This document shows, one piece after another, positions 23,701 to 50,198 of a stretch of DNA of 64,000 nt. The stretch comes from Psammoneis japonica (lineage: Eukaryota): contig QPGO01000035.1 in assembly GCA_008632985.1 (NCBI GenBank), positions 49,899 to 113,898 of the forward strand, in the 5' to 3' direction. Within the stretch, counting starts at the first letter, position 1. Every line of letters starts with the position of its first letter. The notes under the pieces were generated by a model. It saw only the letters and a list, made by a program, of their open reading frames with translations. It had not been told where the DNA came from and made no database searches. The position numbers and the translations under genes are program-made.

Positions 23701-26700
23701 CTGTAAAATCAGGTGAGAAACTGGAGCTCAGGGCACGAGATTTGCACTGACTGCTGCTTCTTCCAAGGAGATGACTGCTGGCCTTACAAACAGCTGAACA
23801 ACCACTGTCAGGGGGTTGTTGTTCTTGATGCACTCCTTCATCTGAGACCAAGGTGCACGGGCAAAAAGCAACATGCCATGGCCAGCGTGGGGACACAAAA
23901 AGAGATCCCTCCCTGTGACACCCAAAACCAGGCTCTTTCTTCCCAAGCATGCATCTCATCAGCATTCATGGAATGTGAGAGAAGCTTCCTGGAGAAAACA
24001 AACAAGAGCAACTCTTGCCTTCACAACAATGGAAAAAAAAATGTGAAACAATTTTGACTGGCACAAGCCCAATGGACTTGTGAATGGCTGCACTGCACTG
24101 CAGCACCCATGACTTGCAAGTGTGGTGTCAGGGGAACCCCACACACGGAACTCAAAGTGTGCGACTCAATGTTTCACAAAGGGGCAACACATCCATGCAC
24201 AAAGATGCAGGCAAAGTTTAAACTTTTTACACAAAATGTTCATTGTCATGTGTTTTTGAAAGTTGATTTTGACATCATGTGGGTGGACAAAAGGAAAAGA
24301 GAAAAATGAGAGGGAAAATGGCTGTGGGTGCTCACACAAAAATCTCAATGGGAGAAGGGTGCCTCTTCATCACCCAACTCACTGCTGGTGAACTCAGTCT
24401 TGGTTTGGCTGTCATTTGGTCAAAGACAGCAGAGCAAAGTGTGCAAGTTGTTTGCTCCTTCTTTTGGGCATGTGCTGAAGCACCTCCTGCGGTCACTGCC
24501 ACTGCTCTGTTGAACCATCTTTTGCCCCTTACAACATTTTGTCACTTGCACATTGTCCCTTGCACCCTTTCCCTCTCTTCTTTTTACCCAGTGCACCCCT
24601 GCGCCTTTGCAAGCAGCTTGGCACCATGAGTTGCTGCTGAGATGAGAGTGGAGATGAGCACAGCCAGCAAAAGCAAGCTTTTGACAACATTGTCACAAGC
24701 ACTGGCATGGCAAGCCAGTGCTTTGTGGAACAAAGTTCTGTTCTGCAACTCACAAGCTTGCTCATTTCAAGAGTGTGCAAAGATCACAAGGTCTTGAAGG
24801 GTCACCACAGATGACCCCCTGGGGTTTTCCAGATCTGCCTGCATTGGCAAGACATGCTGAGCCTGCAACTTTGCATTCTTGGGATCTGTGCCTGCCAATC
24901 ATTGGCTCTCTGCTGCTTTGCCATTGTTTGTGCACTTGATGGACATCCTCTCCTTTCTGGGAGGTGTGGCAGCTTGACCACTTTTTCTGGAGGTGTGCCA
25001 AGAACAGGTCCGTGCCCCCCCCCCCCCCCCCAAAAAAAAAGCCAAAATCAATGCTGTTGCACTGAGCATCTCATGCAAAGTCCAGCTCCTCACAAAGCTG
25101 CTGCAATGACAAGATGCTGCCTCTCAGCTGCAAAACAGAGTGGCACACTGCTGCCTGCTCAACCATGAGAGTCTGTCCTGAGGTTTTAAGTGGAAGAGGG
25201 GGGGGGGAGCAGCAACAAACTGTTGAGAACAACACTTGGTGGAGTTGTCTGTGCACAAGTTGTGTGGACATGAAGCAAGACATTTGACCAGTGAAAACAC
25301 TCAAATTTCTCATCTCCAAGGAAGAAAAACTTTGGCCACCTAAATTGACCTTGGGGTTGTTCTCCAATGTGCACCAATGCACCCAGCAAAATGTTTTTCT
25401 CAGAACTTTCCTCCATCAGCCATGGCAGAGCCAGTGGCCCTGGTGGCACACACAGAATGTTTGCTCCAACAACCTGGGACACACCAGACAGCATTGTCAG
25501 GCAAGCTTTGGCTTGTCAGATTTGATGTTGCCTGGGTTGCAGTTTGCCTTTTCTTGCTGGTTGACTCCCCCCAGCAGAGATTAGAGTCTGGTTGTGCAGC
25601 CTGTCACAGAAGCAAGTGCCGGCACTGTTGGCTCCTTGAGGAGCCTGCCATTTGCCTTTCCTTTGGAAGAGAGATTTGATGTTTGCCCTCCCTGGCTGCC
25701 ATCCCCACCACCTGCACCAGCACCATGACACATTCATGCAAGAAAAGTGGCCCTCTGTTGTCTGTTTGGTGATGGCTTCCAAACCAAAATGGCAGCACTG
25801 TCTAGCTTGCAACTGTCTGGAGTTCAGTTGGACATTGAAACTTTGCAGGTGTGCACACTGCAGTGTCTTGCACATGCTGACAAATCAACAGCTGATGGTT
25901 GAAGGAGGAGACAGTGTCATCAGCCACCAGCCCACTGTCATCATCAGATGGAAAAGTCTCTCTCAGCTCATTTGTGTCAACACCTTTGTTTCACTTGGGG
26001 GACTGCCTCAACAAAATTCACCATCTGTTTTGGTGGGAAAATGATCACTTGTGGGGCCCACCAAAAATTGGTCTGTTGAAAAGACACCAAAGACTCAATG
26101 TTCACATTGTGATGAGATTGTTGGACCAACTGGAGGATGGTTGAGCCCACATGGAAGGCTGAGCATGTTGAGCAGGCTTCTGATGGAGCCAGCAGTGTGG
26201 ACTGAAAGCTGACTTGCCTGATGGCTCCCCACAGCAGACAAGTGAAGTGTGCTCTGAAGTGGAGCCTGACAGACAGGGATGGACCAGCAAATTGCAGAAG
26301 TGGTGCTGTGAGAGGCCAAAGGAGCAGAGACAGATGATCCCACCATGAAGGAGGTGCAACCACTGACACACCAAGCCTCTGCCATCTCTCACTTTGTCAT
26401 CACTGGCACTGGCCACTGCTTTGCTGGTGCTGGCTTCAGTTCCACCATGAGCAGGGGGGCACCCAACAGGGCATCCTGAATCTCAGTGTCAGTCAACAAA
26501 GGCTGTCACAGCAGTTCCTCTGCAAGCTTGTCTGCCTTTGGGGAGCACTGCTGAAGAAACAGCATGTTGGCAGAGGAGGCCAGGAAATGACTCAGGACAA
26601 GCACTTTGGCACCTGAAGCCTCTTCTCACTGATGAGACAATGATGCCAAAAATTGACACAGCTGCAAAGAGGTCACTGACCTGGGCAGCAGCATGGAAGA

Positions 26701-29700
26701 AAAGGGCCCTCAAATGCCTTTTCCTTGCAAAGCCAAAAATTTGTCATGGAGCTTGGGCATGAGCTTTGAGAGGGTGCAGTCCCTGTGCAGCTCATGTGAG
26801 ATCCCAGTCAAGGCCAGGGCAGAGACTGCCGGTTGCTGAGAGCAATCTCAAGTTCTGCTGCAAGATGATCACAAGGGGTGAGGTTGACTGCAAAGTCATC
26901 AGGGGAAGCAGATGTGTGGTTGAGAATGACTCCTTCAGATGGAGTGTGTCTGTTCCCATGCATCTGGCAGAAGCATGGCACCAGAGCTGACACCATCAAG
27001 AGCAATGCAGAACTTGTCAAAAGAGGTGTTGGGGGGCCACACCAGGCCAAGAGGAAGATCAAAGCATGGGGGCAGCAGGAAATCCTGGGGAGCAGTGCAG
27101 CATCACATGGAGGTGGCCTGTGCTGTGCACCAGGGTGGTTTTGCAACCCACTGCTTGATGCCATGGGACCTGCTTGGAGCCCAAAAGGACAACAAAGTCA
27201 GAGCCAAAACGGTGGCAAATCAGCAAATGGCACTGAACTTGGTGCTGCCACCCACAAGGCAAGATGGTGCTGACTGCAAAATGACCAAGCATTGAGTCCC
27301 TGACAAAACAGTCCCAAGGTCATGGGCTCCAATTCTTTTGCCAGAGCATCCTGAGCAAAAGACGCCACCGCAAACGGAAAAAGGGCAGATCAGGTGCTGG
27401 CACACCATGTGAGGCCAAGGCCACTGGCAGATGACTGTGACTTTGACAGAGAGACACCACAGCATCTCCTCATGCCACAACACTGGGGCCACTGACTGCA
27501 GAGTTGTCACAGGGTCAGAAAACAAAGGGGTCTCACCACCCAACAGCAACAGGACACAACAAAGTGGGTGCATGGCAGCACGCCACCAGAGGTGGAGGTG
27601 CTGTGGCTGCTGGCACAAGCACTGGGGGCACTGCAAAACATTGTGCCATCTGCTGCCACAGCCTGCACCCCACATGTGCTGAGACAATGGTGGTCAGACC
27701 ACTGGCATCCATGGCTGAGCTGCAAGCAACAGCAATGTCATCAGATGCCAATGCTGGCATGAAATCACCACAGCAGGAGACCAGAACAGCACCCCAGGAT
27801 GGAGCCAGTGCTGCTCATTGGGATGGCCAGAATGCTGATTGCCAGAAAGAAGGCACCAGATCCACAATGGAGAAAACAAACTGTGCCCAAAAAGAGACAC
27901 CAATGGCAGCACAGCAGCCGCTGCTGCCACCATGCTGGAGCATCCCCCCCACTGTGACTTGACATGGACATCAGAATGAAAGAGGAGAGGGCTCACAGAA
28001 CAAGAAAAAGTCACTCTCTGCTCATCAACATTTCATGCAACATTGTTGATGAAAAGAAAAAGCAAGGTTGCCATGGCTCATTCTGGTGCCTCACATTGCA
28101 TGCCGCTGCTTTTATGACAGCTCAACTGATGCACAAGCAGCCCACACACAGATGACCAGCACTCTCTCCCATTGGCCTCTAATCTGTGCTACATCAGCAT
28201 GGAATTTGTTCCTGGAAAAGATCTTTTCTTGCAAACTTCTTCTTTCACACAAGTGAAAAAAAGGCTCTTTGGGGGGTTGGTCAAACTTTGTCCATTTGCA
28301 AGACACTCTGCCAGGCAGAGTGCTTGCAGATGATGACTGCAGCAGATCATGGGGTCACAGCAAGTCAAAAGCTGGTTGTTGGCATTTCCTGGAAAGTTGC
28401 AGCTTGTCTCCCACAACAGCACCAACCCCAGCAGAAATTGGCAGTTTTGCCCACCCAAAGACTTGCCAAAGGTTGACAAGTGGCATTTGAAGCATCAAAT
28501 GTGCAGCTCTCATGGGGCCAGATGAACCCACCAGTGTTTGGGGGTGATTCAAGGCACATCAAAATGACACAAAGTGTGGGAAATGCGATCCATCCTTAAA
28601 AAGTTGCTGTGCCTTTAAGCATGTGCAGCATCAGAGAATGTCTGACCACTTTGCCCAAGGAACACACCACTCTGCAAGAAATTGGTCAAGACCACTGAGT
28701 GGAGTTCTTCACTTGCAGCTGTGAGTTGAGCCCAAACTTCAGCTTTCATGAAAAGCTGGTTGAGTCCAAGGTTTCTTTTCTCTGCAGTCAAGAAGCACAC
28801 CCTTCTTGGTGTGGTGAGTGTGTTGGTCTCTGGCTTGACCTTGTCCAACTTTGAGTGTGCCCAGATGGTAAACTCAGAGCAGACACAGTGCAAAAACAAT
28901 CACTGTTGCATCAGGCATTTAGAAATGACACATGCAGTGAAGAAAAGCACCCCACTCACAGTCCAGCACCTCATTGCAGGGTGCAAGCCAAGCCAGTGCA
29001 GTCACAAGAATGCACAAAGCAAAGCAAGTGACAAGCAAGGATAAAAAGAGAAGCCAGCTGTGAACATTTTTGCACAACAAGCCTTTTCAACAGCTTCAAG
29101 TGGAAAGTTGAGACACTGTCAACTGAGTTCAGTGCTGCAGGTTTGGCATCAACATTGTCATGACTCCTCCTTCCTTTGTGAACAAGAAGAGAACAGCAAA
29201 ACCTCAACTCCCCACCCCAACACCAATTTGCAGCCACTGGACAAGAGGTTCTTTGATTTCTTGCTGCTGCACAAAGCAATCTGGAAAGCACAATGGACAT
29301 TTCCAATCTTGCAGACCATGTGTTGTGGAGCATTGGATGAAGCCTGCCAGACAAATGGAGTGCAACCAAGTCAGGTCCATGGAGAACAGATGACATGCAA
29401 TTTGCTGCAAGCAACATGCCAGCACATTGGCAAAGCATGTGGTTCTCAAGGCCATTGTGTGCAAGACATCAGCTTTGCCATCACATGGTCAACTTGTGCA
29501 TTGGCTGTCATGTTGCGGTGCACAAACCACATGGTTTGGTCCTCCAAGAGCAGCCATCATGAAGTCAGCAATGGACATGTTGCCATCAGCATCTGTGCAG
29601 AACTCACAAAGCACATTTGAGCCCATTTCAGCACACCAACAAAAATGCCAGCTTCAGCCAAACATCCTCAAAGATGTCACATTGCATGAACTCAACAATG

Positions 29701-31100
29701 CCTCCACCAGATTGGCCTGTGCCAAAGCCAGAGCATGGATGGCAGCTCAGGTGGCCTGCCAACAGGTCTCTCACAATCTTTTGTGCTTTGGCACATTGAC
29801 TCTTTTTCAGCTCTGGAAAAAACACACACCTCAGAAACCACCACCAAATGCACAACAGAGCTCTTTCACTTTGTGAGACTCTGAAGCTGGGTGCCTCGCA
29901 ATTCTTCGTTGGGTGCTGCTCCCAGCTCAGGAATGGGCTCCCTTCCACTTGGGAAGATGTGCGGCACTGCCACCCAGACCTGTTTGGTCTGCATTCTCAA
30001 AAGTTGATCCACCCCAATGTCTTTAATCTGGAGATGCAACAATCATGGTGTGTGCAGCCAATCAACCAGACAGCTTGTTTTTGGGTCACAAGGCAGGGGA
30101 GCCTCAGCTGGCAATGTTTTTTCAGGCAGCATCTCTGTCTCAGCCTGTCCTTTCTCTGACAAGGAAAATTGAGTGTGATGACCACCGTTGCCATCAGCCA
30201 TGTGAAGAACATGTGCTGCAGTCTTGCCCTTCTGCAGAAGAAGCCTGGTTGTTGCAGAGAAGCAGCGCACAGCAGCAGAGTTGCTGGTGCCTGGTGCATG
30301 CCAACAACATTGCCTGGTTCCAAAAAAAACAATAAAACCACCCTAAAAACCAATCACATTTTGAGCAGAACCCATGTGTGGGTTGGGGGGCTGCACATCA
30401 TGTCCTTGATTTCATCATGCTCCAACTCAATGGTGATTTGGACATTGGCAAAAATTCCTTGAATCAATGGCACTGCAAATGGAGCAACCACAGTGTGAGA
30501 GGTGTGCTCTGAATTCTTGCCCTGCAGCAAAGCTTGCCATTCTGTGGACTCGTGTGACAAGTGCAAGAGACCTCACAAGATTTTGTGTGGTGCTTGCAAT
30601 GACGACAATCACTGGGAGTCTCAATGAAGACTTCATCAGTGTTTGCATTTCCACCACTGCAAACCCAAACCGAGCAGACAAAACCTTTTTCTCTTCGACA
30701 ATGCTCCCTGCAAGCACACCTTGGCAGCCTTTGTGGAGATTTGCACTTCAGGATGTAACCCAAGCTCCAATTTGGCTGTCAAGAACCCGATTGAGTCCGG
30801 AAAAGTGTCAAAGGTGAGTTTTGGCAGAGTTCTGTGATGTGATGGTGCTCGCACCTCAGTGGCGTTCAACAAAATGTTCCAAACGTTTTGCTCATTTAAG
30901 CAAACAAAACTTAGATTCTGGGAGCATGCATTGTTGCTCATTTTGGCTGCCAACAAAGAGACTGCATCCTTTCATTTGCCCTCCTTCAGATTGTGAGAAC
31001 TGCAGTTGGCGTGACACGCAGAACCGCAGCAGTGTGTGGTCGTTGAACAAGAGCCATGGTTGCGATCGGATCACGAGCTGACTTCCAAGTCAACACCGTA
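17800..31100. other. Highly degenerate repeat/transposon field depleted of both TpA and CpG and enriched in TG/CA
   Basis: TA and CG are very rare over ~13 kb. The many overlapping Cys/His/Gln-rich ORFs almost lack Tyr. Individual elements could not be identified by eye. Confidence 0.75.
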
Positions 31101-31297
31101 ACTGGCATGCATGGATGGATCATGGATCTATCTATCTATCGCTGTCTACTGCTCCAGCTCTCTACTCTAGAGGAGTGGCTCTCTCTAGAGTAGAAGCACA
31201 TCTACCGGCATCTGCGGTGCGACGTGTTGTCTGTCCTCTGGTCCTCCACCCTCATTCATTTTCAGTTGCAGTGTCATCGATCATCGCGCACCACATC

Positions 31298-31528
31298 CGA
31301 ATAAATCTCGATGCAACGAAAGAACAAGCACGATGCCTTAAGTCTAAATAGAAAGCAGCAACACTGTCAATGCGAACCTAAACCTGATTAGATTGTGAGC
31401 GTGTCGCTGCAGCACCACTCGATCCACACATCTCAACCAATCACCAATTGCAACATGGCCCTCCATCCAGATTTACTCGGTCCCCGCGAAACGGCAATGA
31501 CAATGCCGATTCGTCCAAACATGTAACA
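31298..31528 (-). repeat. 3' LTR of the copia element
   Basis: Starts with TG just after the PPT on the minus strand; 31298-31479 matches the other LTR with 9 substitutions. Confidence 0.85.
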
Positions 31529-31643
31529 TCCTCTCACAGAGAGGCAAACCACAAGAACCCAAATTAAACCACCAGATGTGCTGGCTTGGGAGGCCACGAT
31601 ACGTGGGCGCGAGCCACAGGTGCCTGGCCTTGGTGTCGGGACA

Positions 31644-33368
31644 TCACCAAAAAACACACGAGCAAAGCTTCCATCGCCGCTCTCCTGCAACCACCTTCGT
31701 AAGTAGATCGGCCAAGTTCGTTTCCGCATCCTCCTTGCCAACACGAACAATTCCCGCTGCGACCGCTTCTCGCACAACATGGCAGTTGATGGCATTGTGC
31801 TTCTTGTGCAAAACCGACTCGGGTGCACTTACATTCTTTACAACACCGCGATTGTCACAAAAGATGCTTGCCGGTCCTTCAAGGGGAACCCCAAACATGC
31901 GAAGCTTGTGACGCAAAGCAACAATCAATTCCTTACAAATCCGCATCGCAACCAATTCACTCCCAAACGTTGCCGATTCCACCGTGTTCTGCCGCTTGCT
32001 GAACCACACCACTGGCGCGTTGTTGACGAATGTCAGAATCCCGCCATGCGACCTGCGAGTGACAACATTCCCTGCATGGTTAGCATCAACAAATGCACAG
32101 ATGTTTGCCGGATTACCACGAGGCTTCGGTGCCCGTGGCGGCAGTTCCTCCTCGACGTCCCCGTAAAACTCGGTCCAGTCTGCGTTCAAATTGAAAATAG
32201 ATTCATCAATCACCGGTTCCTTTGGATCAAATCCGATGCATCCGACGTTCTGGTGTTTCTTCATGTGCGCAAATGCATGACACAATGCCTCAAGATGTCC
32301 TTTCCTCGGATTAGCTTGACATTGAGATGGGATTGAAACCTCATGCAAGACATCGATGCGACCCAACTCGATCGCCCAACGACAAATCCCCATCAGCTGC
32401 AAACACCTGTCCACCAAGTCGGGGCCTAACTCGTCCGTCACGTCCAGCTCCGGTTTGCATTTCGGGGGCAGTGGATCCTTTGCACTGTTCTTCAGAACCT
32501 CTCCATTGCTGTCTTCATCCAATGGGCCTTCCACAGTCTTGATCGTCGATTTGACACATGACCTCGGTGAACTCGCCCAGATTGTGCGCCCATCCTGAGT
32601 CTGAACCTTCTCAACGTTAGCTCCAAGATGAACTTCTGGTTCTCCTTCGCTGCCGGGCTTCACGGCACAGTGTTCACCTGTTGCAGTGACAATGGACTTC
32701 CCTTGATGGGAAATGATTGGTGTGTCATCGACATGAACCAAAAGCATTTCACAATGCTCGCGCCCATCCTCACGAGTCGCCGCACGCAAGTGGACATCTG
32801 GGTCCACTCTCGTCGATGCGAAGCCCAAGTCACGTAAGACCGATGACAGTGCAGACCTCCAAGAGCATCCCGAGCTCTTTAAGCCATGTGATGCCCGAGT
32901 GACAACAAGTGCCTTTCCTTCGCACTCGCCGCATTCCTTTCCACCTTCAAACCACATCTTTTCTGCGCACGGTGCATTGAGGTGAGCATTCTCCAGATCA
33001 ATCACCGTAATGTCGATGCCATTCAAGGCTGCCAACAAGAATCCAAGTCGCACACTGTCTCTGGAAACCACGCCAGAGCAAGTGATCGATGCCGGGGCCT
33101 CTGTCGTGTGTCCGCCAGCTGCAAACCTTGCCTTTCTGGTGAAATCCATTTTAATGTCGAATGCCATGTGGCACCTGATCTCCTGATGACCGCGCAAAGT
33201 TGCGCTCTTGCCTTCCCGGACGACTTGAGGGGTTTCAGCTTCGTGCTCGCGCCATGCCACCTTCACCTTTGCCATCTCCTTGTTGATTGCACGAGCCCAA
33301 CAATCTGTCCCCGTTTCCTGATCAATCTGCAAAGCGTCCTCCGTGGACTTGGGCAATCGGACCCCCAA
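31644..33368 (-). pseudogene. Copia reverse transcriptase / RNase H region
   Basis: FDIKMDFTRKARF.AGGH, VVSRDSVR, NA(Y>H)LNAP, (Y>H)GLKSSG, V(Y>H)VDD, FVDANHAG, WFSKRQNTVES.TFGSE, NLADLLTK. Only one Tyr in 574 aa. Confidence 0.9.
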
Positions 33369-35334
33369 ACTTGTGAGTCATGCGCCAGCACTTCTTCTTG
33401 ACCTTGGACACAACGCAATTCCGTTTGCGCAGGACATGTGTGACCCACCAAGCAAAAGCAGGTTCCTCCGTCAACCTGTTCGCAACAGCACACTCAGCAA
33501 CTTCAATGGGGTTGGAGTCCTTTAGATCTTTGAGTTTGACCCAAGATGAGCTGCCATCCTTCCATCCGACCAATGACTTCCATCCTTTTGTTGTGATCTT
33601 CTTCTTCTCCTTCCCGTCAGCGGTTTGTACGGTGCCGTCAGCAATTGACACCGCATGGGTCACTCCTCTCGTGGTCCTGCATCTCGTGTGAGATAGAACA
33701 CTGGTTGCCCTCGCTGTCGACCTGAGCAAACATGTTCTCGGCAATGACATTGGCTGCACACTTGTCTGTGGTTCCGTCGGTGTGTTCCACTTCGTGTTCG
33801 CGAGTGTCAAACAATGGGTTTTGATGCCGAGTCCCAATTGGATGCCCATCCTGTCCTCTTGCACGTTTCGTTACAACACCACGTCGCTCGCCGTCGGTTC
33901 CGATGTCAAACACAAGCTCCATTCCCAGGTGTTGATCGATTGCCTGCTCGTCGTTGTCGTCTGGTCATTCGTTGGGTGACAGCATGTTGCCATGTTCCTC
34001 GTCCTCTGGCGTGATGCTGCCCTCACATTCCACACCGAGGTTGCCGTCAATTGCAAGATCGTCCAACACGAATGCGGGTGCAGCTTCATCGCCCTTTAAG
34101 ACAAAGTCAGCATCGTCCAATCACTTCTCCAGCTGCTCATTAAAGTTGTCGACCTCAACGCGAATGTCCGGTTGCACCATGTCAGCCTGTGTCACGTGCT
34201 TGACCGATGTTTTGGAGACAATCTTCCTGCTTTCCGCAACAATCCAATGGCACATGTCCGAGCCAACTTTGTGTGAGACACCAAGCCACCGTCCAAGCCT
34301 TCGAGGATCGTCAGTTGCACTCAGCTTGTTGGGCCTGTCCCACCACCACACCATGTCGTGGAAACCAAAATCCAAATGCTCGCCCATCTCTGGTGTCTGC
34401 CCAGTGACCTCTTCATGTCCAGTCCTCTTGTCCCTGCCTCTTGCCATGCGCGACACTAATTCGACTCGCAAACAAGACCAAAATCCCACAATCGCTTTGG
34501 CACCTTCTTCTTCGTCATCCGCAGCCGCCAACATTTGGCTGAGAAACCAATTTCGCGCTCCGCTGCCTGGTTCTGGTTCTTCCGACCCTGCTCTGATGTT
34601 CTCAATTGCACTCTCATGCGTCGTGCGTGTCTCACAAATTCGGTGCTCCTTCCTGTGAACTCTCCTGCCCCGTCCGACATGAGACATTCTGGTGCACCCA
34701 TGTCGTCTGTGAATTCAACAAGAGACAAACCTGCCTCCGACCTGGCGGTCATCGGCACAACCTTCACGAATCTGCCCTGAGCACAAACATTGGCACACGT
34801 GTCACCGAGTGAAGACTTCACCTTGGATGTCAAAGTGTCAACAAACCATGTTCCTTTCAGACGCTTCCGATGCAAGTCAAGATGATCCACCCTCACTCTT
34901 CGTGACATCGGCTGGGTCGCCGTTCGCACACCGCGCTGAGTTGTTACATTGAGAGTGTCTTTTGCCGTTTCTAAACCGACACTCCATTTTCGGGCCAGCT
35001 CTTCAGCATCAACCTTCGAGTGCCGATCCTTGCTGCACAAATCTTTGACTGCCCTCTGCCTCTTGTCCACATCGTTGCGACATGTGCAAGCCACGTTCAC
35101 TGAGCTGATGAGCCTGTCGCAAAACGATTGAAGTTGACAGATGGGAGACACAGACGACAGTTGCATTTCGACCTCGCCCCAGCGTGCTGCTTGGGACTTT
35201 GCCTTCTCGCTCCTCAATTCCGAGACCTGTTCTTGTCGCATGCCAGAGGTTAATGATCGAACAGTGCGCATCTCCGCCTGCTCTCTAGTGCGCTCCGGTG
35301 AGCCCATGTCCATCTGTGCTGGATCCCATGTCAC
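33322..35334 (-). pseudogene. Copia integrase and linker region, frameshifted
   Basis: WFVDT...SDGAGE...EQGRKNQNQAAEREI DDE-like core; LGRWLGVSHKVGSDMC.W; TTKGW...WKDGSSSWV.LKDLKDSNPIEVAE, typical of diatom copia pol. Confidence 0.8.
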
Positions 35335-35870
35335 CTGTCAACAGCACAACCGGCAAGTTCTGCACTTCCCAATCCGTCGGAACACGAGACTTGAAAGACA
35401 CAATTGTCCCCGTGGTGTTGAAAGGGATGAAAGCTTCGTCAGCTTCAATGCCAAATCCGTTTCGGGTGTCGCAAGGGTTGTCATGTGCGGGCATGTTGCA
35501 CGCACGGAGTTGGTTAGGATTCAAAAGTGAGTGTTCCATGTCGGTCCCAAACCAGAGCATTTGATCACCAACCAGCAAATGTTCACGAGTCGTTTCCGGA
35601 TCTGTCCATGCGGTGCAACAACGTGCCACAGGAATCTGTTTGATCGGCTCACAAGAGTCCAGAAATGGATGTACCTCGCACACTTCATTTGTCATCTCCA
35701 TGAGCTTCCAGTTCGCCCCAGCGCAACAAGTGTCCGCGTGAGTGTCACATTCATTTCGAGCGACAAACCCAGGTGTCGTCAAATTTGTCATCTGTGCAGA
35801 ACTCGTCGATCGGATCACACGTTTTGATGTCACGGCAATGTGCCTCTTTGTCGCCTTTCCTTTGAAACGA
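35285..35870 (-). pseudogene. Copia aspartic protease region
   Basis: RNECDTHADTCCAGAN motif (diatom copia ELDSHADTCC-type) and SLLNPNQLR. Confidence 0.75.
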
Positions 35871-35974
35871 GACATTGGGTGGGGTTCAGTCAACAGCAAG
35901 AAGAGCAACACAAGCAAAAACGACAAGTGTGCCAAATGCGCCAATGCTCCAGCAGCTGTTGCCACCCCAAGGAG

Positions 35975-37565
35975 TCAGGTGGAACCATTGTAGGCTCCCT
36001 GACCGAAGGCGCATCCATTGCGTCCACCGCGATCCCGGTCAGCGCCGCGACCACGCCCGCTGCTCCTTTGCTCCTGATCCTGTTGTTGGGTTTGGCCTTG
36101 GCCATCTTGATGGACTTGGGCTTCAGCTGCATGCCTGCCGCCCCCATCGTGTCCTTGTCGACCTGCGGGAGACCCACGGCCACCACCGCGTCCATGACCC
36201 ATTCGTTCGCGAGCTTGGAACACGCAGCTCATGCCTCCGTTGCACTGTAACTTTTCCCATTCTTGAGCGCTAAAGCTCCTTGCAGGGTCGGATGCATCGA
36301 CTCCATTGATCATTGCAGTGTGGTCACCACCTCCACCTTGACGGCCACCACCGCATCCGCGTCCACCCCCACGTCCAAATCTTCCTCCGTGACCGCGACC
36401 TCGATAAAAACCGCGGCCACCGCGCCGCCACCACGGCTCATTTCAGAAATCTTGCGCTTCGAGCAGTGCCGGGCTTCCAACTGAGCACCTGCATGCAAAC
36501 GAGAGACTTTGGATGAGAAATGAGCACATGCCCCCACGAAGTCACGAGGGTGCTGACTGCCAATGACAGCCGTTGCTGCAACAAGACGAGTGTCATCCGT
36601 TCGGATCCCTTTTAGAAGAATGTCAACTTTCTGTCGTTCAGATTTGCGGTCGTCCGGTGATTTGTTCAAAGCAGCGAAAGCACTGGTGAGTTTCTCATTG
36701 AACTTTTCGAACGGGAGCGATCCTTCCTTTTTGTAAAACAAGGTTTCAATGGTTGCCGCAGCCAGATGGATGCACTTGCTCAACTCGCCCTGTCCATTGC
36801 AATGGTCAACCCATGCGTTGAATGCTCCACGTCCATCTTCTGTCGCGTCAAACGGTTCGATCCATGCCCATCCTGCCGTGTCGACCAAGTGTTCCTTCAA
36901 CATGCGGTGAACGCTGCGGTTGTCCTCGTCACATGTGGCGCCATTCAATGGCATCTGGCACATCGCTGTTGTTGAGCATCCGTGAATGCAGCCGGAGCTG
37001 GCATTGTCCTTGCAACATGGCGAAGGGGTTCTTTCAACACGCCAAATTTCTGTGCCAAGAGATTCAAGAAAGCATCTTCGCACACATCGAAGTCATCGGG
37101 CTCAAACTTTACGAGACCGCTTGCCGACGCGTCCGAATCCGTGCGCTCCTTTTCGATGCGCCTGCCATTCCAGGCCGCAGCCACAGCTGCTGCATTAAAG
37201 TCTGCCGCAACCAATGGCTGATTCCGTTTGAGCAAATCCTGGCACCACCATGCTAGCGCCTGTAAGTTCTTGATCTGAGTGGTCCCAAGAGTCACACGTC
37301 CGTCGGCCACCGTGCGACGAGACGCCCTCTGCGCCATGTCTTCCACATCGTGGTCACTCTCCATCACTGCGATGTTTTCCAAAGTCGCGAACCCTTCACA
37401 GAAGACCAACCTCGCCCTTGCGTTCTGGTCAGCAACACCACAAACTTGCAAAACTGCGTCAACGTCAGCTGCCGCGGCTGACGCCGCAAGTGCTGCTGCT
37501 GGTGCTGCCGCTGCTGCCATCCCATGACAGAGAAAGGGTGCAAAGGTCCCGCACCGGGAACACAC
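35975..37565 (-). pseudogene. Copia gag, frameshifted
   Basis: ORFs 36945..37565 and 36310..37083 (AWIEPFDATEDGRGAF, KVDILLKGI) plus a Gly/Arg-rich C-terminus, directly downstream of the 5' LTR/PBS. Confidence 0.75.
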
Positions 37566-37979
37566 AGCTGTGAGTCTGCATGGTCATGATGGCGCACTTT
37601 CTCTGTGTTGTGATGACGGGTTCACACAGCCACCCGACGTCAGGGTGATCAGTCCTGTGTCGTTCATGTCAACCGACATCATTGAGCACACGCTCGGGCA
37701 TGTCGCCCAATGCCGCAGTCCCTTCACACCCGTTGCACATGTGAGGATAGTGACTGTCTTTGCGAGTGTTACCATTGCAAGCTGTTTTTGTGGATGTTAT
37801 AATGAGCGACACGAGACGCATCATCGTGCGCATCAATCCGAATTCTGATGCATCGCGCACAGTTCAGCACCGTTTCTACAGCTGCACGTTCCATGCAAAC
37901 AACACAACAAACAATCGTCCATGACGAATTGTATTCGAAACCATTTCGCTCTGTCTTTTTCGTCTTGGCTCTGACAAAG

Positions 37980-38161
37980 CGAATAAATCTCGATGCAACG
38001 AAAGAACAAGCACGATACCTTAAGTCTAAATAGAAAGTAGTAACACTGTCAATGCGAACCTAAACCTGATTAGATTGTGAGCGTGTCGCTGCAGCACCAC
38101 TCGATCCATATATCTTAACCAATCACCAATTATAACATAGCCCTCCATCCAGATTTACTCG
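37980..38161 (-). repeat. 5' LTR of the copia element (lacks ~49 bp present at the start of the 3' LTR)
   Basis: Ungapped match to 31298-31479. Confidence 0.85.
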
Positions 38162-38199
38162 ATGGGACAGTACACAGGGAAAAATCTATCGAGAAAAGA

Positions 38200-39438
38200 T
38201 CCGAACACGCTGAAAGATCCATCATCCATAACATCAAGCGGTTACGAGAAAAGCAGGTGACAAGGTTGTTAGAGACCCACCGTCACAACGAGAATTGAAT
38301 GGCTTGACAAAGGAGGCGCTCGAGAGCGATGGATTTTTAAGTCTGATTGGAACCGCCGATGATCAAGTCTTGTCGAGTTCCATGCAAGTGTCACTCGAGT
38401 TCACTGATGTCAATGGCGCAACACACAACAAGATAACGGCAACGCAGGGAGCGGAAGCGATCGACAATACCATGATTGCCGTTATAGCATCGGTCTGTGC
38501 CGTGGTGGTGTGTTTGGTCGTTTTGGGCTTTGCGTTCGTGTCCCCGCATGAAGCGACGAGGACTGCACCGACCCAAGGCCGCCACTCCACAGACTGTGAC
38601 TGCCGAAGGATTCTTCGAGCTTCCAAGTGATTTGGATGCCTCGTATCAAAACGGTGCCAGTGGCAGTGAAGTCGAATTCACGTATACATACGGAAAGGGT
38701 GATTCGTCTGTGTCGATTGGCGCCTCTAATACGGAGCCTCCATGGTGGGTCCTCCTAGTTTGGCATGGTCCTTTATGATTCCAGAGAGTGACTCTGATGT
38801 GGCCGAACACCAAACAAGCGAAAGGACTTTGCTGCCTTTGACTGTGACGATAATGGAGCGATCAAGACCACAATTATAATGAAGATACCGAAGAGTCGGA
38901 TTACGAGCCGTCTCCGTTTGTTTGTCGGAAGCTGTATTGTTCTAATAATTTGAACAGCGAAAAAGACTCTGCTCCTGATGAACGTGGCGCTATTAGCAAT
39001 GATAATGGATTCAACAAGGTCGGAATAATATCGGAGCTATCACAATCCGCTCAAGCCTTGAGACGCTGAGGTTACCCTGAGAACAAAGCAGCGCCTTGCG
39101 GAAGACACACTTCATTGGAAAGAGAAGTTCGGCATCGACGACAGTCCCATTCGGAGCACCCATGATTTGTATTCACCAAGCAAGTTGACTGTGTAAGATA
39201 ATGACATGTCTCAAAGTGAGAGTTGAATCATTCCAACAGGTATCATAGTTCTCCAAGTGAGATGAATGCATCTGGTGATCATCATTCGTCAAGTCAGTCG
39301 AATATATCTGGAGATCTTTGTTCCCCGAGTCAGTTGAATACACATGTTGAATATCAGAAGCCGAGTCATCAGGTGAATACATCTGGTGAGTCTCTTGCCC
39401 CGATCAAGTTGAACGCATTTGGTGATGAAGTTGTGTGA
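38200..39438 (+). pseudogene. Fragmented gene for a single-pass membrane protein, 5' end replaced by the copia LTR
   Basis: Hydrophobic TM segment IAVIASVCAVVVCLVVLGFAFV followed by acidic low-complexity fragments in shifting frames; ~13-aa repeats near 39250-39390. Confidence 0.35.
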
Positions 39439-39669
39439 ACAGAAGCTCGCATTAGTGGAACGGATTTCGAGGACTAAGCTAGCGAGACCTAGTATTTGTT
39501 GTGGGTACTGGCAATTGTCTAATGCATACGCCTGGACTCGTATTGCCTTCTTCTCTATATGCCCGGTGGACGCTGCTCAACAAGCTACCAGCTTTGTGGT
39601 CTAGAGAAGACGACGACAAGTGGACCGCAGCACGGCTTAGGGATATCGATGCGTCCTATTGTCAGACCT

Positions 39670-40242
39670 CATTTCCAGCGCCAAAGTTGAGAGGGAACCT
39701 GTCACAAGGCACATTTCAAGAATGTCGTCGAGCTCCATGAATGCGTCGTGTGAATCAGAAAAGGCGGTTGAAACGGAGTCATAGAGTCTACCATGCACAG
39801 TGGCCAATACCACCGATATTCAGCCTCATCGTGTCGGCATAGGAAAGAGTATCATTAACAAATACCTTGAATTGCCGCTCCTCCGCATTCAAGGTCTATC
39901 TACTCACTCTCTAAATGGATTGTGGAGCTCAGCATCGAAAAGAATAGTTTTCTAACCACATTTCCAGCGCCATAGTTGAGAGGGAACCTATCACGAGACG
40001 CCTTTCAAAAACGTCGTCGGGCTCCATGAATGCGTATTATCAATCAGAAAAGGAGGTTGCGACGAACTCTTCCAGGCACAGTGGCCAATCCCAACGATAT
40101 ATCCAGCCTCATTGTGTCGGCATCGGAAAGAGTGCCATTAACGAATATCTTGAATAGCCACTCCTCCGCATTTCAAGGTTTAACTACTAACTCTCGAAGA
40201 GGAGTGTAGAGCTCAGCATCGAAAAGAGGAGATTTCTAACCA
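39670..40242. repeat. Diverged tandem duplication, ~289-bp unit x2
   Basis: catttccagcgcca..gttgagagggaacc...gagctcagcatcgaaaaga..ttctaacca occurs at 39670 and 39959. Confidence 0.85.
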
Positions 40243-40559
40243 ACTTTGTTTTGGGCCAAGTGAGTCAGTTGGAAATCCTCTGCATCATGCTTGGGCTTTG
40301 CACCCCAGACCCCGACTATGGCAAGGAAATTAGCGGGCATCTGGTGATTGCCTTTCATGGTGGTGATGGCCAGCTTGCGATTCCTCAGTGGCGTGGAACG
40401 AATGCAGATGTCGAAGGTTTCGAGATTCGTTTCATAAGATTTTGAGCCATCCATTGCTGGCAGTGGTAAAGTATCAACATCCTCCATCTGCTACTACGCT
40501 ATGCTTCTAAGTTCTACAAGTGCCCTTTCGTGACACTAAACTCTTCGGCCGCTGAGTCG

Positions 40560-41460
40560 TTACCCAGAAACCAAGTCGATAACAACAGGACGTCCAAGCG
40601 GGAAAATGAGATCGGTGAGCTTGAGCATTTGCCCCTTGTCGTTGTCTGTCAGATACTCCAAGAGTCCTGCTGCTTTCAAATGGAACAGGGCTCCTCGGAA
40701 GGTACTGGCAGCGCAACCAACTTTGGCTGCCACCTCACTGCGGGTGTGCTTCTGGCCGTCAATCAGGATTTCAAGAATCTTGCATTCAAAGCCTGTAAGC
40801 TTCTCTTTGACTCGTTCCTGCAGTTCTGCCGTTGTTTTCTTGTCACCGCCGCTGCCGACCTTCTCGATCCCAGCTTGAGTGAGACTGGCGGGCGCACCTT
40901 TGGGGCAGACCACGAGGCCTTGCTTATTGAGATTCGCCAACGCGTTCCGGAAGGTAGAAGATTTGGACGAAGTCGTCCTTTTTATAGTGCTTGAAAAAGC
41001 ACAACCTGTTGCCGCGGTGGTGACTTTAAGCCGAGGTCGTGGAGCTCTTTCAACGTCACCAGAATCTGTTGCTCAAGAGTGATAGGGATTTGCGAAGGAG
41101 CTTTGTGCTTGGCTACACGGGTCTTCCGGACCGCTTTCGGTTTTGCCGAATGACTGTTGGCTCCACATGAAGTTGTACAGGAGAGGCCGCAGTGGCGGGA
41201 AGGGAAGCGGCCTTCTTTGCGATCATGGCAGAGATGAACACATATCCTTTCTCTTTGTTACTCTGGATAGCATACTCAAGGCCTGCGGTGTTCTCAAAAT
41301 CCACCCAGCGACTGGCATGCGTTTCTTCCAGGTGATACTTGAACGTGCAGCTGCACTCCTCAACAGCACCATCGAATGAGCTCATTTGAAATACATGGCT
41401 TACTAGCGCTTCATATGTCGGCTTCTGGAGATCTTGAACCGTGAATTCCTTGGTTGGCAT
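40560..41460 (-). CDS. Unknown protein with PB1-like N-terminal region and winged-helix-like C-terminal region (copy A; interrupted)
   Basis: ORFs 41113..41460 and 40560..40940 are homologous to 41859..42410 and 42515..42955. The domain labels are inferred from sequence pattern only. Confidence 0.5.
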
Positions 41461-42039
41461 GGATACGAAAGACGGGGTTCATGGTGATGCTTGATGGCAC
41501 ACTGGGAGAGCTGAAGTTGTGCCATCGGCAGGGACACAAAATGGTGTCCCGAGTCTTGTTGGCGACAGTATGAAATTTTCGCACAAGTTTTGTGGGAAGA
41601 AGCTAGACATGCACATACAACACTTATTGCCCACATCCACAAGTATACTGTCTAAATATAGACCATTCTTTTCCGTTGTCGTTGGAGCCCGCCGCCACCA
41701 GACATAGAAAGATACTTACACCGACTGTAGTGCATTTCTGCCACAGTTTGAGTTTAGCTCGCGCCTCATTCTATGTTTTATGGCGGCGGGCTCCAACGAC
41801 AACGGACAAGAATCGCCCACATTTTAGACACCATGCTTGAAGGTACGGGCAATGAACGTTGCATGTGAGTGTCTCGTTTCTTCCCTCGAAAACTTGTGCG
41901 AAATTTTCATTCTGTCGCCAACAAGACTCGGAGTGCCACTTTGTGTCTACTGTGAATAGACACATTTCAGCTCTCACGAGAACATCACCAAGCATCACCA
42001 TTAACCCTCTCTTTCGCATTCAAGTACGCTTTGAGAACG

Positions 42040-43010
42040 AGCCAGGCAAGCCAACCAAGGAATTCACGGTTCAAGATCTCCAAGAGCCGACGTATGAAGC
42101 GCTGGTCAGTTATGCATTTCAAATGAGCTCATTTGATGGTGCTGTTGAGGGATTCAGCTTCTCATTCAAGTATCACTTGGATGAAAAGCATGCTAGTCGC
42201 TGGGTGGACTTCGACAGCACAGAAGGGCTTGGGTATGCTATCCAGAGCAATCAAGTGAGAGGATACGTGTTCGTCTCCGCCTTGATCTCAATGAAAGCTG
42301 CTACCCTCCCCAGCAACGCTGTCCCTTCTGCGCAAGTCCGCGAAGAATTGAAACCAAAAGAAGAAACGAAGACCCACGTCGCTACGCCACTCCTGCAAAA
42401 CTCCATGTAGCAGCCAGCCGTAACTCATCGAAGCCAAAAGCGGTCCGGAAGACCCACGTAGCTAAACACAAAGTTCCTGGGCAAGCCTCCGTCCCTCTCG
42501 AGGAACATCTGCTGGTGACGTTGAAAGAGCTGCATGAATTCGGCTTAAAGTCACCGCTACGGCAGCAGGTTGTGCTTTTCACGAGCGCTCTAAAATTGAC
42601 GGCTACTTCCAAGTCTTCCACCGTCAAAAACACATTGTCAAAACTCAAAACGCAAGGACTCGTGGACTACCCCAACAAAAACACAGTCAGTCTAACTCAA
42701 GCTGGGATCGAGAAGGTTGTTACAGGTGCTGCTAAGGTAACAACCAAAGCACTCCAGGAACGAGTCGTAAACAAGCTTGGAGGCTTGGCACTCAAGATTC
42801 TCAACGTCCTTTTTGACCGCCGCGTGCACACCCGTAGTGAGGTGGCGGCCCAAGTCGGTGACGCCAGCGAAAAAGAGAGTACCTTCAAAAACGCTAGGCC
42901 CTATGTCCAAGTTGAAGACATCAGGCCTGCTAGAGTATTTACCGGTAAAAGGTAGAAAAGTCTCTCAAGATCACCGATCTCATATTCCCGGTGGGGAGTC
43001 CTGTTCCTGA
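42040..43010 (+). CDS. Paralog of copy A in inverted orientation (copy B; frameshifted)
   Basis: Shared PTKEFTVQDLQ.PTYEALVS..FQMSSFDGAVE, RWVDF, SLTQAGIEKV and HTRSEVAA.VG. Confidence 0.5.
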
Positions 43011-43260
43011 AACCTCGGCTCTTGATACGGTCGAAGTCAAAGAAGAACCGAACAACTCGGCTCCTGATACGGTCAAAGTCAAAGAAGAAGAGCAATTTTA
43101 AGACGTAGAATCGCAAGAGTAGCCCTAGTAACAGAATGATGACATTGATCCTCTGTCAGTACTACTCACGCTTCAGTGCTCCTTTGGAGCATCACCATTA
43201 TGTTTTCACGCTTCCGTTAGTGACACTCTACTAGCGTAACGGATCTCCAACCGTTCAATC

Positions 43261-43458
43261 TCAGTATTCGTTCCGCGCCACTGACGTGTGCAAGCCCATG
43301 ACGGCGATTATACTACCAATTTGGTCGAGACTATCAAACCCCTTGGCCATATTATAGAGGTCACGTTCCGCCACCATTGCGGTATACAGCCGAGGCGCCA
43401 ACAATTTAAACTCGTGCATTTGCGATTCAATAATCTCCCTGGCCTTACTGCGCTCCAC
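43261..43458 (-). pseudogene. TraB-domain-like C-terminal fragment
   Basis: PRLYTAMVAERDLY.MA...IIAVMG.H resembles the TraB/PrgY ERD..MA..VVAVVG.GH motif; short and isolated. Confidence 0.4.
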
Positions 43459-44749
43459 TTTTGGTTTTCATTCCTCATCTCGCCACTACTTACCACATTG
43501 TGAGCCACACTGAAGAATCGAAGTTCTGGGAAGAACGCAACGAAGAGAAAGAAACGGAGACAATAATGCATGAAAATAACGAGGAATCGAAGACACCAGC
43601 TGTGGTGGACCTAGCCCTTTCGACGTCGTCAGCTCCTTGGACTGATTGGCGTCCTTACGGTACCTGCAGATCGTTTTACATTCTCTTCCTCTCCACTCTG
43701 TGTAGTTGTCGAGTTTGCGCAAACAATTGAGTGAAGCTGATACCGATTTTTGCTCAACTTTGTGACCGTAGTTGTAGAAAGCAAGAAGTGTTGGAAATCG
43801 CTCTCCAGATGTTACATATCACCAGAAGAAGTGATTTTGTAAAGGTTGACTCTCGAGTCCTTGAAACTAGACTACATGGCGACTTTCCGTCAGTGAGAGT
43901 GCGTCTAACAAAAATTAATCACTCTAGATTCCTTCGTTTCCGAGCTTACCTTGGTGATGAGTTTCTTGGTCCTCCTAATACAGTCGCAGTTACCAATATT
44001 CCAGATGCCGATAATTCATCATCTATACATTTCCTCAAACCAAAAAAACTCTGAATACTCTTTTCTTTGGGCGCTTCAAAAAATAACATTTCTGTGGTTG
44101 CAGCATCATTTCCTTTAGAACCATGAATAACGAATACTCTTGACGCCAAACCATGTTGCTGTCCTTGCCGAAAGGGTACGTGACGTTGATGAGAGCTAAT
44201 GACGAGAAATATGATGTACTACAGCACGTCTTGTTTGCGAAAGCAAAACAACTATAGACACAGCCCACGAAATCGAACAAACATTTCCATACGGTAGCAC
44301 GAAACGAGTCCAACGTCTGTGGACAGTAAAGAGGCGTAAAGATCAATGAGACTAGATCGGGAAACGTTGACGACAAGTGTCTGACTTGCCGTACTGCTGG
44401 CGTCTTTCTTCATTGTGAGCCTCTCATGCCACATACCGTACCGTCCTCGACGCTCGATGGTAGCTATCGTATCTCGGCTATTTTCTTCAAAAGTTGGCAT
44501 TGGCCTCTGGTACAAATTCCACGTACATTTCTACACACGTCCTCGCGAATTCTGCGCGTTGACTTGCTTCACACGGTGCTTTCCATCCACAGGAGAAGCT
44601 GTTATCTTCCGTGCCTCCTTCTGCTGTTCCCTTCAGTTCTCAACAGGCTCTTTATCTCTGTACCTAGTTTTAAAGGAGGATCACTTCTGCAAAAAATCGA
44701 CGCCATCGCGATCGACCATGACCCATGACGGAGATTTGTGATGGCAACC

Positions 44750-46500
44750 ACATTCCACGTGGGGAAATGGTTCCCAAGAAAAAATGCATTGAGAACGATG
44801 GCTTTTGCCTCTCAGCCAACTGGCCAGCAGACTGTGTGCGGGTGCTGCTTCATTCTGTCAGTTGCCAGTTTCATGCCAAGCAAGTGTGGAACCACTGCAT
44901 GAGTGGTTCAGGTGGACCCAGTTTGAAGTTCAGAAGACAGCACCAGCACAACTTTGCTGCCCAACCCCACCACCACGGGCGCCACCACATGCGGTCACAA
45001 AGCACCCGTTTTTTTCTGTCCTCAAGAGCCAGGCCTGACATCCAGATCATGGTGTCCTTCCTGTGTGCATTGGGGGGTGGCAAACCCTGATGAAGGTGGC
45101 TGGAAGAAATGCTGGCAGCAGCAGATCCAACAGAGTGCAAGGCTTGCAACAGGTGAGAAGATCTTTGGGTGTGCCCCCTTGTCACAGACACTGGTGCCCT
45201 GGCTGTGGCGCAGACAGAGCACCACAACCTGAGGCTTGTTGCGGCGCAGCTCCCCTGCAAATGCTCAGCTGGACACAGCCAGAGAGGGCTCCTCTGTCAT
45301 GCACCAAAGCCCATCAGCACAGGGGCAAGAGCTGCTCCAAGCAAGAGCACAAGGAACAGCATTTCCTGGGCCAGGGTCCTGCTCAGGGGCGGGGGCTTTG
45401 ACACAAAAGACACACGACATGTCTCTGCAAGCAAGGAGACATTGGTGTGTGGAGACAACCGGGGTCATCCCAGACTGTGATGCCAAAGAGGATGCATTGA
45501 CTTAGTGGACTTCAGGGCAGGACTGCTGAGGCAGGAGCTCAAGTGGGATGGCCAAGGGGCTGGGCCATCCAAGCCCTGCATGCAGCTGGGAAGTTGGCAC
45601 ACAAAATCTGTCAGGACAAGGAGCGGTCAATGGGAGGAAGAACCTCAACAGGGTGTTTGTCTTGATCTTTGGGCAGTGCTCCCAGCTTTTGCAGAATGAA
45701 GCCAAGGTCCACAAAGGCTGGGATGGCATTGACTTGATGGCAGATGTGATGCTTGGCCAGCTTGAATTGGCCCAAACCTGCCGCACAATGCAAAGGCAGA
45801 TGCAGTTCAGCCCTTCTCATCAGACCGCTGTTGATGCTGAGCTTGTGCCGCCAACACCATTTCATCAACCCATCACATGTCCATTGCAGAGGCTGCTGTG
45901 ACAAGGCCAGGGATTTGATGGGCATCACTGGGTGCATGAGACTCTGGTCAGATTGGAGCCCGCCCCCTGAGAGGGTGCAAAGAACAATGCCACAGGAGAT
46001 GGCAGCAGGCACCATGGCAAGGAACAAGTGCACTGGCACCCCATTTCTGTTTGAGGACAGCAAGAACCAAAGATGACTTGTGGGAGTCTGGCCACAGATG
46101 TCAAGAACAGGTGCGAAACAAGTGCACAGGGCTGATGAACAACCTGCCAAAGTTGCTTGGGGTGGCATGTGGAGGCTGTGTCATGAGCTGTGTTCCACCC
46201 AAGTGCCGCTTGGATGGGCACCAGACAAGACCAAGCTGACTTTTGCAGAGGGTGCTGAAAGAAGGTGTTGCCAGTCCCAGGCTGTTGTTGCCACCTGCAA
46301 CAAACCAAGCCTCAACAAGCAGTCAAGGAGCTGCCAGAAGATCTCATCCTCCCAGATGGCTGCTTTGCAGCATGTCTCATGAGTGACAAAAAGCTGCTCA
46401 GTGGAGTGCACAAGGCTGCACACAAGATGAGGGTGTGATGCAACAATGCTGTGGCCCAAGCCACCAACAACCCATGCAGGTGGCACCACAACTTCCCAGA
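44750..46500 (+). mobile_element. Degenerate copia relics (RT/RNaseH fragment followed by a gag-like fragment)
   Basis: RARPDIQIMVSFLC (copia RPDI..V.FLC) near 45025-45070; VFVLIFGQCSQLLQ (diatom copia gag GQC motif) near 45655; TA/CG depleted. Confidence 0.55.
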
Positions 46501-50172: not shown

Positions 50173-50198
50173 TGTTGTTGTTGTCATTGTCATTGTCG

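Follow-up and report, generated by a model that had tools for sequence, protein, structure and literature searches.

The 64,000-nt stretch of Psammoneis japonica DNA analysed here (assembly GCA_008632985.1, contig QPGO01000035.1, positions 49,899 to 113,898; hereafter the window, in whose coordinates all positions are given) contains a retrotransposon bounded by a pair of long terminal repeats (LTRs). Integrated retrotransposon DNA in this diatom has very probably undergone hypermutation at the DNA level, acting on both strands, by which TA was turned into TG or CA, while host flanks and other dinucleotides were spared. The change has a defined direction, is strictly specific for TA, falls evenly on the two strands and is confined, with sharp borders, to transposable elements (TEs), and data from accurate reads reproduce the depleted sequence. 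Comparison with the available text of the original report supports its description as a diatom case of a hypermutation that became known in 2026 from a rhizarian alga; in the diatom, LTR retrotransposons are the target and conversion is close to saturation.

The LTRs were returned by a repeat search of the window as one two-copy family of 182 nt, located at 31298-31479 and 37980-38161, with 95% identity and a spacing of 6682 nt. Their alignment is gapless across the repeat, and identity drops immediately beyond both ends. The copies differ at 9 sites, exclusively by transitions; the right copy has TA in 9/9 cases, the left one CA (6) or TG (3). The sites, given as left/right positions and letters, are 31335/38017 G/A, 31356/38038 C/T, 31359/38041 C/T, 31427/38109 C/T, 31429/38111 C/T, 31434/38116 C/T, 31450/38132 G/A, 31451/38133 C/T and 31457/38139 G/A. 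The first-pass annotation of this DNA had described the pair in the same terms, and realignment reproduced the description together with every string quoted. Dinucleotide counts are TA 7, CA 21, TG 11 and CG 9 in the left LTR, and TA 16, CA 15, TG 8 and CG 9 in the right one; thus 9 of 16 TA sites differ, against none of the 150 other positions, and 173 of the 182 positions are identical. If 67% of substitutions are taken to be transitions, nine random substitutions would all be transitions falling on the 32 TA positions of the 182 with a probability of about 4e-9. Because the element is read from the minus strand, the right copy is the 5' LTR (37980-38161, minus strand; 16 TA, TpA observed/expected 1.04), taken to be in the unconverted state, and the left copy is the 3' LTR (31298-31479, minus strand), which appears partly converted, 9 of its 16 TA sites being CA (6) or TG (3), with a TpA observed/expected of 0.56. 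Read in element sense, the 5' LTR carries the TATA-like motifs TTATAAT and GATATATGG, which are intact in this copy only.

Judged by its sequence, the element between the LTRs is of Ty1/copia type, on the minus strand. Its interior (31480-37979, minus strand) holds 48 TA and 414 CG in 6500 nt, corresponding to a TpA observed/expected of 0.09-0.20 per kb at normal CpG (0.81-1.02). The coding region is broken into at least seven overlapping open reading frames (ORFs). The frame for reverse transcriptase (RT) and RNase H, at 31644-33377 on the minus strand, encodes 577 aa and matches Pfam RVT_2 with an E value of 1.2e-9 (38.6 bits, cut-off 31.6); among its 1155 homologues identity reaches 68%, and PF07727 is present in nearly all of them. 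It reads HVDD and SHGLK at positions where the homologue consensus is YVDD and LYGLK, and contains a single Tyr in its 577 residues, against a homologue mean of 3.7%.

The LTR pair alone cannot polarise the change, but the coding region of the element can. The RT frame was aligned with 60 homologues, and columns with at least 80% Tyr were scored as conserved Tyr columns. In the 14 such columns the element has Cys (7), His (6) or Tyr (1), so that 13 Tyr codons were lost by change of TAY to TGY or CAY. Other changes at conserved columns were GTA>GCA (3), CTA>CCA (3), ATA>ATG (2), ATA>ACA (2) and TTA>TCA (1). None of 24 conserved His, Cys, Gln and Trp columns had changed in the direction of repeat-induced point mutation (RIP), that is, by His>Tyr, Cys>Tyr or the gain of a stop. 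Conserved residues were retained at 9/10 His, 3/3 Cys, 3/3 Gln, 8/8 Trp and 20/21 Arg columns, which indicates that the RT frame has suffered neither CA/TG>TA change nor CpG decay. AA steps were similarly spared: Lys was kept at 16/17 columns and replaced by Arg at 0/17, and Asn was kept at 11/12 and replaced by an AGY Ser at 0/12; overall, AA, AT and CG codons are kept in the frame. In the Tyr and Ile codons, 9 A>G and 8 T>C changes are found on the sense strand, interleaved along the gene. Both DNA strands were therefore hit equally, which excludes editing of one strand of RNA or cDNA, and the intact CpG of the element shows that deamination of 5-methylcytosine (5mC) is not the cause of the TA loss. 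The earlier claims of a TA to TG/CA direction, of a mutator working on double-stranded DNA rather than by one-strand RNA editing, and of a process distinct from 5mC deamination are all supported, by the Tyr columns, the strand counts and the CpG values of the interior, respectively.

The first-pass annotation had also suggested scanning TpA observed/expected in windows along the sequence; a scan per kb revealed that depletion affects, besides the copia interior, two large blocks, so that about half of the 64-kb window is in the converted state. Block A (17800-31050) has 38 TA, 64 CG, 1582 CA and 1496 TG in 13251 nt, and block B (44700-54700) has 26 TA and 112 CG in 10001 nt. In both, TpA observed/expected is 0-0.12 and CpG, also depleted, is 0-0.47, mostly below 0.1, while CpA+TpG reaches an elevated 1.7-2.1. 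TpA values are 0.5-0.7 in the remainder of the window, and the frames attributable to host genes (PhoX-like, HSF, IGPS and L7Ae) are located in sequence of this kind. Block borders are sharp, within about 100 nt, at about 17.8, 31.05, 44.7 and 54.7 kb. An unconverted spacer of about 250 nt (31051-31297), with 10 TA, all in 31099-31203, separates block A from the 3' LTR. Indices devised for RIP are correspondingly displaced: blocks A and B have TpA/ApT values of 0-0.15 and (CpA+TpG)/(ApC+GpT) values of 1.8-2.3, and the copia interior has a TpA/ApT of 0.09-0.20. Nine listed open frames, five of them in block A, contain no Tyr at all. Stop trinucleotides are biased in the same sense, with 23 TAA and 7 TAG against 314 TGA in block A, and 21 TAA plus TAG against 244 TGA in block B.

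The 41 open frames scanned from blocks A and B matched no Pfam family at E values up to 0.01. When 120 copia homologues were compared with the window by tblastn, matches were found at 4-1623 and 31647-34752 only, leaving block A without a TE family match. Block B contains, at 50981-52073 and in opposite orientation, a decayed relative of the gag-side region of the copia element; the relationship was detected by blastn after purine/pyrimidine recoding (80.5% over 1105 columns) and by one BLASTP match (E 8e-10).

The bases flanking TA influence its fate. Survival by context was derived from 112 TA in 29.8 kb of converted sequence and 754 TA in 19.1 kb of normal sequence. Relative to normal sequence, survival was 0.445 for TTAA, 0.26 for CTAA, 0.21 for GTAA and 0.13 for CTAG, and at most 0.05 for all other contexts; for ATAT it was 0 (0/60 sites on the expected scale), and ATAC is almost never left. 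An independent baseline, drawn from 51 related loci, gave the same ranking, with losses of 100% for a 5' A, 97% for a 3' T and 47% for a 3' A. From this hierarchy it follows that the enzyme would read at least a trinucleotide. The same contexts bear on the LTR pair: TA sites lie in refractory contexts in 5/7 of the shared cases and in 2/9 of the differing ones (Mann-Whitney, one-sided p = 0.039; Fisher p = 0.07), as would be expected if conversion had struck the left LTR, but not under the opposite polarity. The dependence of the outcome, TG or CA, on the flanks could not be read in the same way, the 4-mer baseline from the 51 loci being too noisy (a TA deficit of 69.7 against a CA+TG excess of 45.4) and the 13 Tyr codons too few.

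Read evidence was available from one public sample of one study (runs X1, X2 and X3), assembled into contigs of exact 31-mers. Two X1 contigs, of 2050 and 2594 nt, span 26456-31073 in block A with 9 and 14 differing letters (0.4-0.5%); word depth is 60-66 over these contigs and about 50-105 in normal flanks. Runs X2 and X3 give little or no cover of the copia element and carry no weight either way. Because contigs of exact words at about 60x presumably need accurate reads, a base-calling artefact induced by DNA modification is unlikely. Among the differences between window and X1 contigs listed for 25000-31073, 22 events were counted: 4 TG/CA pairs, 8 of CG against TG or CA, 2 of TA against CA or TG, and 8 others. 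The pairs, in which one dinucleotide reads TG in the window and CA in the contig, are located at 25562-3, 26965-6, 28700-1 and 29578-9. They imply that the same ancestral dinucleotide took separate routes in two haplotypes, strains or copies, hence that the process acts on resident DNA. These differences, lying in the neighbouring block, support change in place after integration independently of the LTR pair.

The depletion is not a trait of the copia family, since 80 of 80 related metagenome loci are normal, with TpA observed/expected of 0.53-1.05 and none of 1226 one-kb windows below 0.3. Among the 120 homologues listed, one from another assembly (P0018) bears the signature seen here, with His in 8, Cys in 4, Phe in 1 and Tyr in 2 of 15 conserved Tyr columns, and an overall composition of 0.3% Tyr and 7.8% His+Cys; two control homologues retain Tyr, P0001 at 13/16 and P0002 at 15/15 columns.

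A closely similar process has been measured in Bigelowiella natans, a chlorarachniophyte (Mettrop et al., bioRxiv 10.64898/2026.01.13.699255). According to the available text of that preprint, 231 of 302 new nuclear mutations detected by Illumina sequencing in mutation-accumulation lines fell in two viral inserts, an integrated nucleocytoplasmic large DNA virus (NCLDV) and a virophage; 230 of the 231 were A>G or T>C changes, without exception at TpA. The rate was about 6e-7 per site per generation, and the events occurred in some lines only. It also describes 324 TpA-poor coding sequences, enriched in RT and DDE domains, and proposes an ADAT2-like adenine deaminase, left there as an untested candidate; in the same available text CpG (0 occurrences), LTRs and stramenopiles are not mentioned. 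Measured against this account, the two cases share a restriction to TpA, changed to TpG or CpA according to strand, a confinement to foreign or mobile DNA with sharp limits, and a TpA depletion accompanied by CpA+TpG gain. They differ in host and target, a rhizarian with viral inserts in one case and a diatom, hence a stramenopile, with LTR retrotransposons in the other. Here the process is near saturation (TpA observed/expected 0-0.1, against 0.45 in a B. natans NCLDV insert), a hierarchy of neighbouring bases is visible, and the older blocks are also depleted of CpG. De novo events were measured in B. natans, whereas for the diatom they are deduced from standing sequence. The first-pass annotation knew of no description of such a system in diatoms. 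This part of its claim holds for the literature searched, in which no report of a TpA hypermutation signature in a diatom was found, and two diatom TE papers (PMC2806351 and 10.1101/2025.10.24.684338) gave 0 occurrences of 'hypermut' and 'dinucleotide' in a term look-up of their available text; the phenomenon itself, on the other hand, is not new, given the B. natans measurements in the preprint text cited.

Fungal RIP, as in Neurospora, shares several features with the pattern observed here: dinucleotide-specific transitions on both strands, a confinement to repeated or mobile DNA, fairly sharp edges and the destruction of coding capacity. RIP, however, makes TpA from CpA and TpG, and creates stops, whereas here TpA is destroyed, TAA and TAG are lost, all six frames are opened and RIP indices are inverted; the chemistry must act on A or T, not on cytosine. 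The APOBEC3 and ADAR systems of animals similarly hypermutate retroelements by deaminase-type reactions, and ADAR prefers a 5' U, but they work before integration on one strand, of single-stranded cDNA or RNA; here both strands are equally affected and resident DNA keeps changing. Decay of CpG by 5mC deamination can account for the loss of CG to TG or CA in the two blocks (8/22 of the listed block A differences), but not for the TA loss, given a copia interior that is TA-poor with CpG intact at 0.81-1.02.

Taken together, the data would fit a mechanism in which A:T pairs of the palindromic 5'-TA-3' step are changed to G:C, giving TG or CA. The change would occur in place, after integration, and at a rate far above background mutation, as suggested by 9 TA-type LTR differences against 0 others. 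Targeting would depend on sequence, by pairing of repeats or through small RNA, and not on chromatin that spreads, because the TA-rich spacer between two converted elements was left untouched; a chromatin-spreading model was considered and is countered by this spacer (31051-31297). The outcome would be TE inactivation, as in RIP. The additional CpG loss of blocks A and B is most simply put down to ordinary 5mC decay in TEs silenced for a longer time, which would be slower than TA loss and subsequent to it. Somewhat favoured, on balance, is the broader proposal of a sequence-guided diatom defence that erases TpA, best in ATA/TAT and worst in TTAA contexts, which would be the same system as in Bigelowiella, an old counterpart of RIP widespread in stramenopiles, alveolates and Rhizaria, and would be run by a DNA adenine deaminase or a thymine modifier.

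As for the chemistry, the best guess, proposed tentatively, is a TadA/ADAT2-like deaminase that acts on DNA and turns adenine into hypoxanthine. Since TA is palindromic, A>G on one strand is indistinguishable from T>C on the other, so that oxidation of thymine remains the main alternative: a JBP/TET-like enzyme could form 5-hydroxymethyl- or 5-formyluracil, which mispairs with G. In dinoflagellates 5-hydroxymethyluracil is found preferentially at TpA. A different chemistry of this kind, or error-prone repair by Pol eta, is regarded as rather unlikely, although nothing in the present data separates thymine from adenine chemistry. The Pol eta variant, one of the candidates named at first pass, is disfavoured, since WA>WG repair would be expected to touch AA, and AA was left untouched, with no change to Arg in 17 Lys columns and none to AGY Ser in 12 Asn columns.

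Several points weigh against the interpretation given above. A target-site duplication was not found around the pair, the flanks in element sense being CCCAT and GATGT; the two LTRs may consequently not be sisters, and their identity at integration is unproven. All nine differences are in one LTR (two-sided binomial, about 0.004), though the interior beside the spared 5' LTR is converted, and none of the models tried fully fits a wholly spared 5' LTR next to a converted interior. A transcription-coupled model, devised for the spared LTR, fits 6/9 sites, and only if the start site lies after the TATA-like motifs; it was not adopted. Neither a further LTR copy in the window (blastn) nor, in the two collections scanned, a match to a 31-nt invariant LTR stretch (0 in metagenome contigs, 0 in genome contigs) was found, so that the nine sites have no direct polarisation and are polarised only indirectly, by context, at a one-sided p of 0.039. 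The copia element has several frame breaks, hence has decayed beyond TA conversion. Finally, the exclusion of an artefact relies on the premise that 31-mer contigs at about 60x require accurate reads, and runs X1-X3, from a single sample and study and of a library type not on record, are possibly the source data of the assembly itself.

The missing target-site duplication and the one-sided differences next to a converted interior are both what would be seen if the element had arisen by recombination between two copies or by gene conversion, or were a chimeric join of the assembly, the nine LTR differences then reflecting the separate histories of two copies: still TA hypermutation, but not an insertion clock. 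Opportunity for such exchange is suggested by word depth in X1, which sums to 1250-2800 over the copia bins (with the minimum in a bin that includes some flank), compared with about 60 at the flanks; depth is a rough guide rather than a copy number, but indicates a multi-copy family. On the other side, 173/182 positions are identical without a single non-TA difference, and the X1 contig of the left flank ends exactly at the border of the 3' LTR. A mixed origin of the pair is accordingly judged improbable, though deserving serious consideration.

Editing before integration, either of RNA by an ADAR-like enzyme or of single-stranded cDNA by deamination during reverse transcription, is very unlikely. 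ADAR does prefer a 5' U, and the sparing of an LTR together with an interior peak of mutation recalls the gradient left by APOBEC3G on HIV cDNA. Such editing would, however, mark one strand, whereas 9 A>G and 8 T>C are counted on the sense strand; in addition, the two LTRs differ, old non-mobile blocks differ from X1 contigs by TG against CA at the same site, and an RT with HVDD would be dead, making repeated cycles improbable.

The opposite polarity, in which RIP-like or CpA-methylation-driven C>T change (CA/TG>TA) affected the right LTR and the left one is ancestral, has hardly any likelihood left. Two sequences cannot be polarised by themselves, and the TpA observed/expected of the left LTR (0.56) equals the window background (0.5-0.65) while that of the right one (1.04) exceeds it; but related elements attain values up to 1.05, TATA-like motifs are found only in the right (5') LTR, shared TA sites lie in conversion-resistant contexts (p = 0.039), the copia interior is TA-poor rather than TA-rich, and 0/24 conserved His, Cys, Gln and Trp columns changed the RIP way against 13/14 Tyr lost. 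No more credible is an artefact, by which TA (and CG) steps bearing a DNA modification in silenced TEs would be misread as CA or TG according to the dominant read strand: a majority vote over strand-specific miscalls would indeed yield only CA or TG, never TA or CG, and the library type and origin of the only matching runs leave room for it, but contigs of exact 31-mers at a depth of about 60, similar to that of normal flanks, reproduce the depleted block at 0.4-0.5% difference, which noisy long reads would presumably not yield, CA and TG outcomes interleave site by site without runs of strand majority, and the B. natans signature was, according to the available preprint text, called from Illumina data (bioRxiv 10.64898/2026.01.13.699255).

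TA-specific hypermutation in the diatom would extend a newly described genome defence from one chlorarachniophyte to diatoms, a far larger, ecologically dominant and genetically tractable group; in such tractable hosts the enzyme responsible for editing A:T pairs of chromosomal DNA could be sought by direct experiment. The window displays where the process ends, in kilobases from which TA has all but disappeared. Dating by LTR divergence is badly inflated, the 4.9% divergence of the present pair consisting entirely of hypermutation sites, and detection of TEs by protein profiles is weakened or lost, as indicated by the E value of 1e-9 for RVT_2 and by the 0/41 scanned block ORFs with a Pfam match. 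With TAA and TAG lost, long but spurious reading frames open up in each of the six frames and can mislead gene callers. A natural editor of A:T to G:C on DNA, specific for TA, would also be of interest for base-editing research.

Further features of the copia element were recorded. A region upstream of RT (33659-34752, minus strand) matches the N-terminal parts of homologous polyproteins in tblastn and has no Pfam family; open frames at 36310-37583 (minus strand), without Pfam family, are putatively assigned to the gag side by position only, and have the relative in block B mentioned above. Neither an integrase nor any other Pfam family was recognised in the six open frames upstream of RT. Insertions or deletions relative to other X1 copies occur at 33362, 34461, 35329, 36421, 36963 and 37593, coinciding with the junctions of the overlapping ORFs, so that the frame breaks are either indels specific to single copies or indel errors of the assembly. 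Immediately following the 5' LTR, in element sense (37930-37979, minus strand), the sequence CTTTGTCAGAGCC is found; it resembles the primer-binding site that copia elements use for initiator tRNA-Met, except that one TA reads TG. Across 17800-54700, where TAA and TAG are nearly absent, long spurious ORFs occur on both strands, and as many as 64 frames of at least 60 aa are contained within the 6.9-kb copia element.

A second copia element, of another family and truncated by the window start, is located at 1-1653 on the plus strand; it matches RVT_2 (E 1.2e-35), reads HVDD and is partly converted, and so provides a second instance of the signature. Its 11 conserved Tyr columns hold His (4), Cys (3), Trp (1), Arg (1) and Tyr (2), the Arg codon (CGT) corresponding to a double TA>CG change. 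A short high-copy piece is found at 28416-28476 and about 44607-44652, with a depth bin of up to 590, eight loose ends and one contig joining 28416 to 44607. The piece is probably a TE terminus that both blocks share; it would mark a boundary inside block A and, for block B, the left-hand limit.

In the remaining sequence, the PhoX-like frame (54828-56480, minus strand) has its best named relatives in the raphid pennate diatoms Nitzschia, Seminavis, Cylindrotheca and Mayamaea, at 46-52% identity, which agrees with the diatom origin assumed at first pass and sets the window apart from Bigelowiella. No deaminase domain was found in 57 of the 75 listed open frames of at least 80 aa, taken from sequence of normal composition only (38162-44700 and 54700-64000). 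The region 2456-17458 (minus strand) is occupied by a giant open frame of repetitive sequence, split into pieces of 1114, 1352 and 2629 aa, with matches to DUF7507/DUF11 and PT repeats; small frames recur every 1152 nt and GC skew is 0.35-0.37 over 6-16 kb, and the whole looks like a huge repeat-built gene for a surface or adhesin-like protein. A 50-nt direct repeat, 86% identical, is located at 39659-39708 and 39948-39997, 289 nt apart, in sequence of normal composition.

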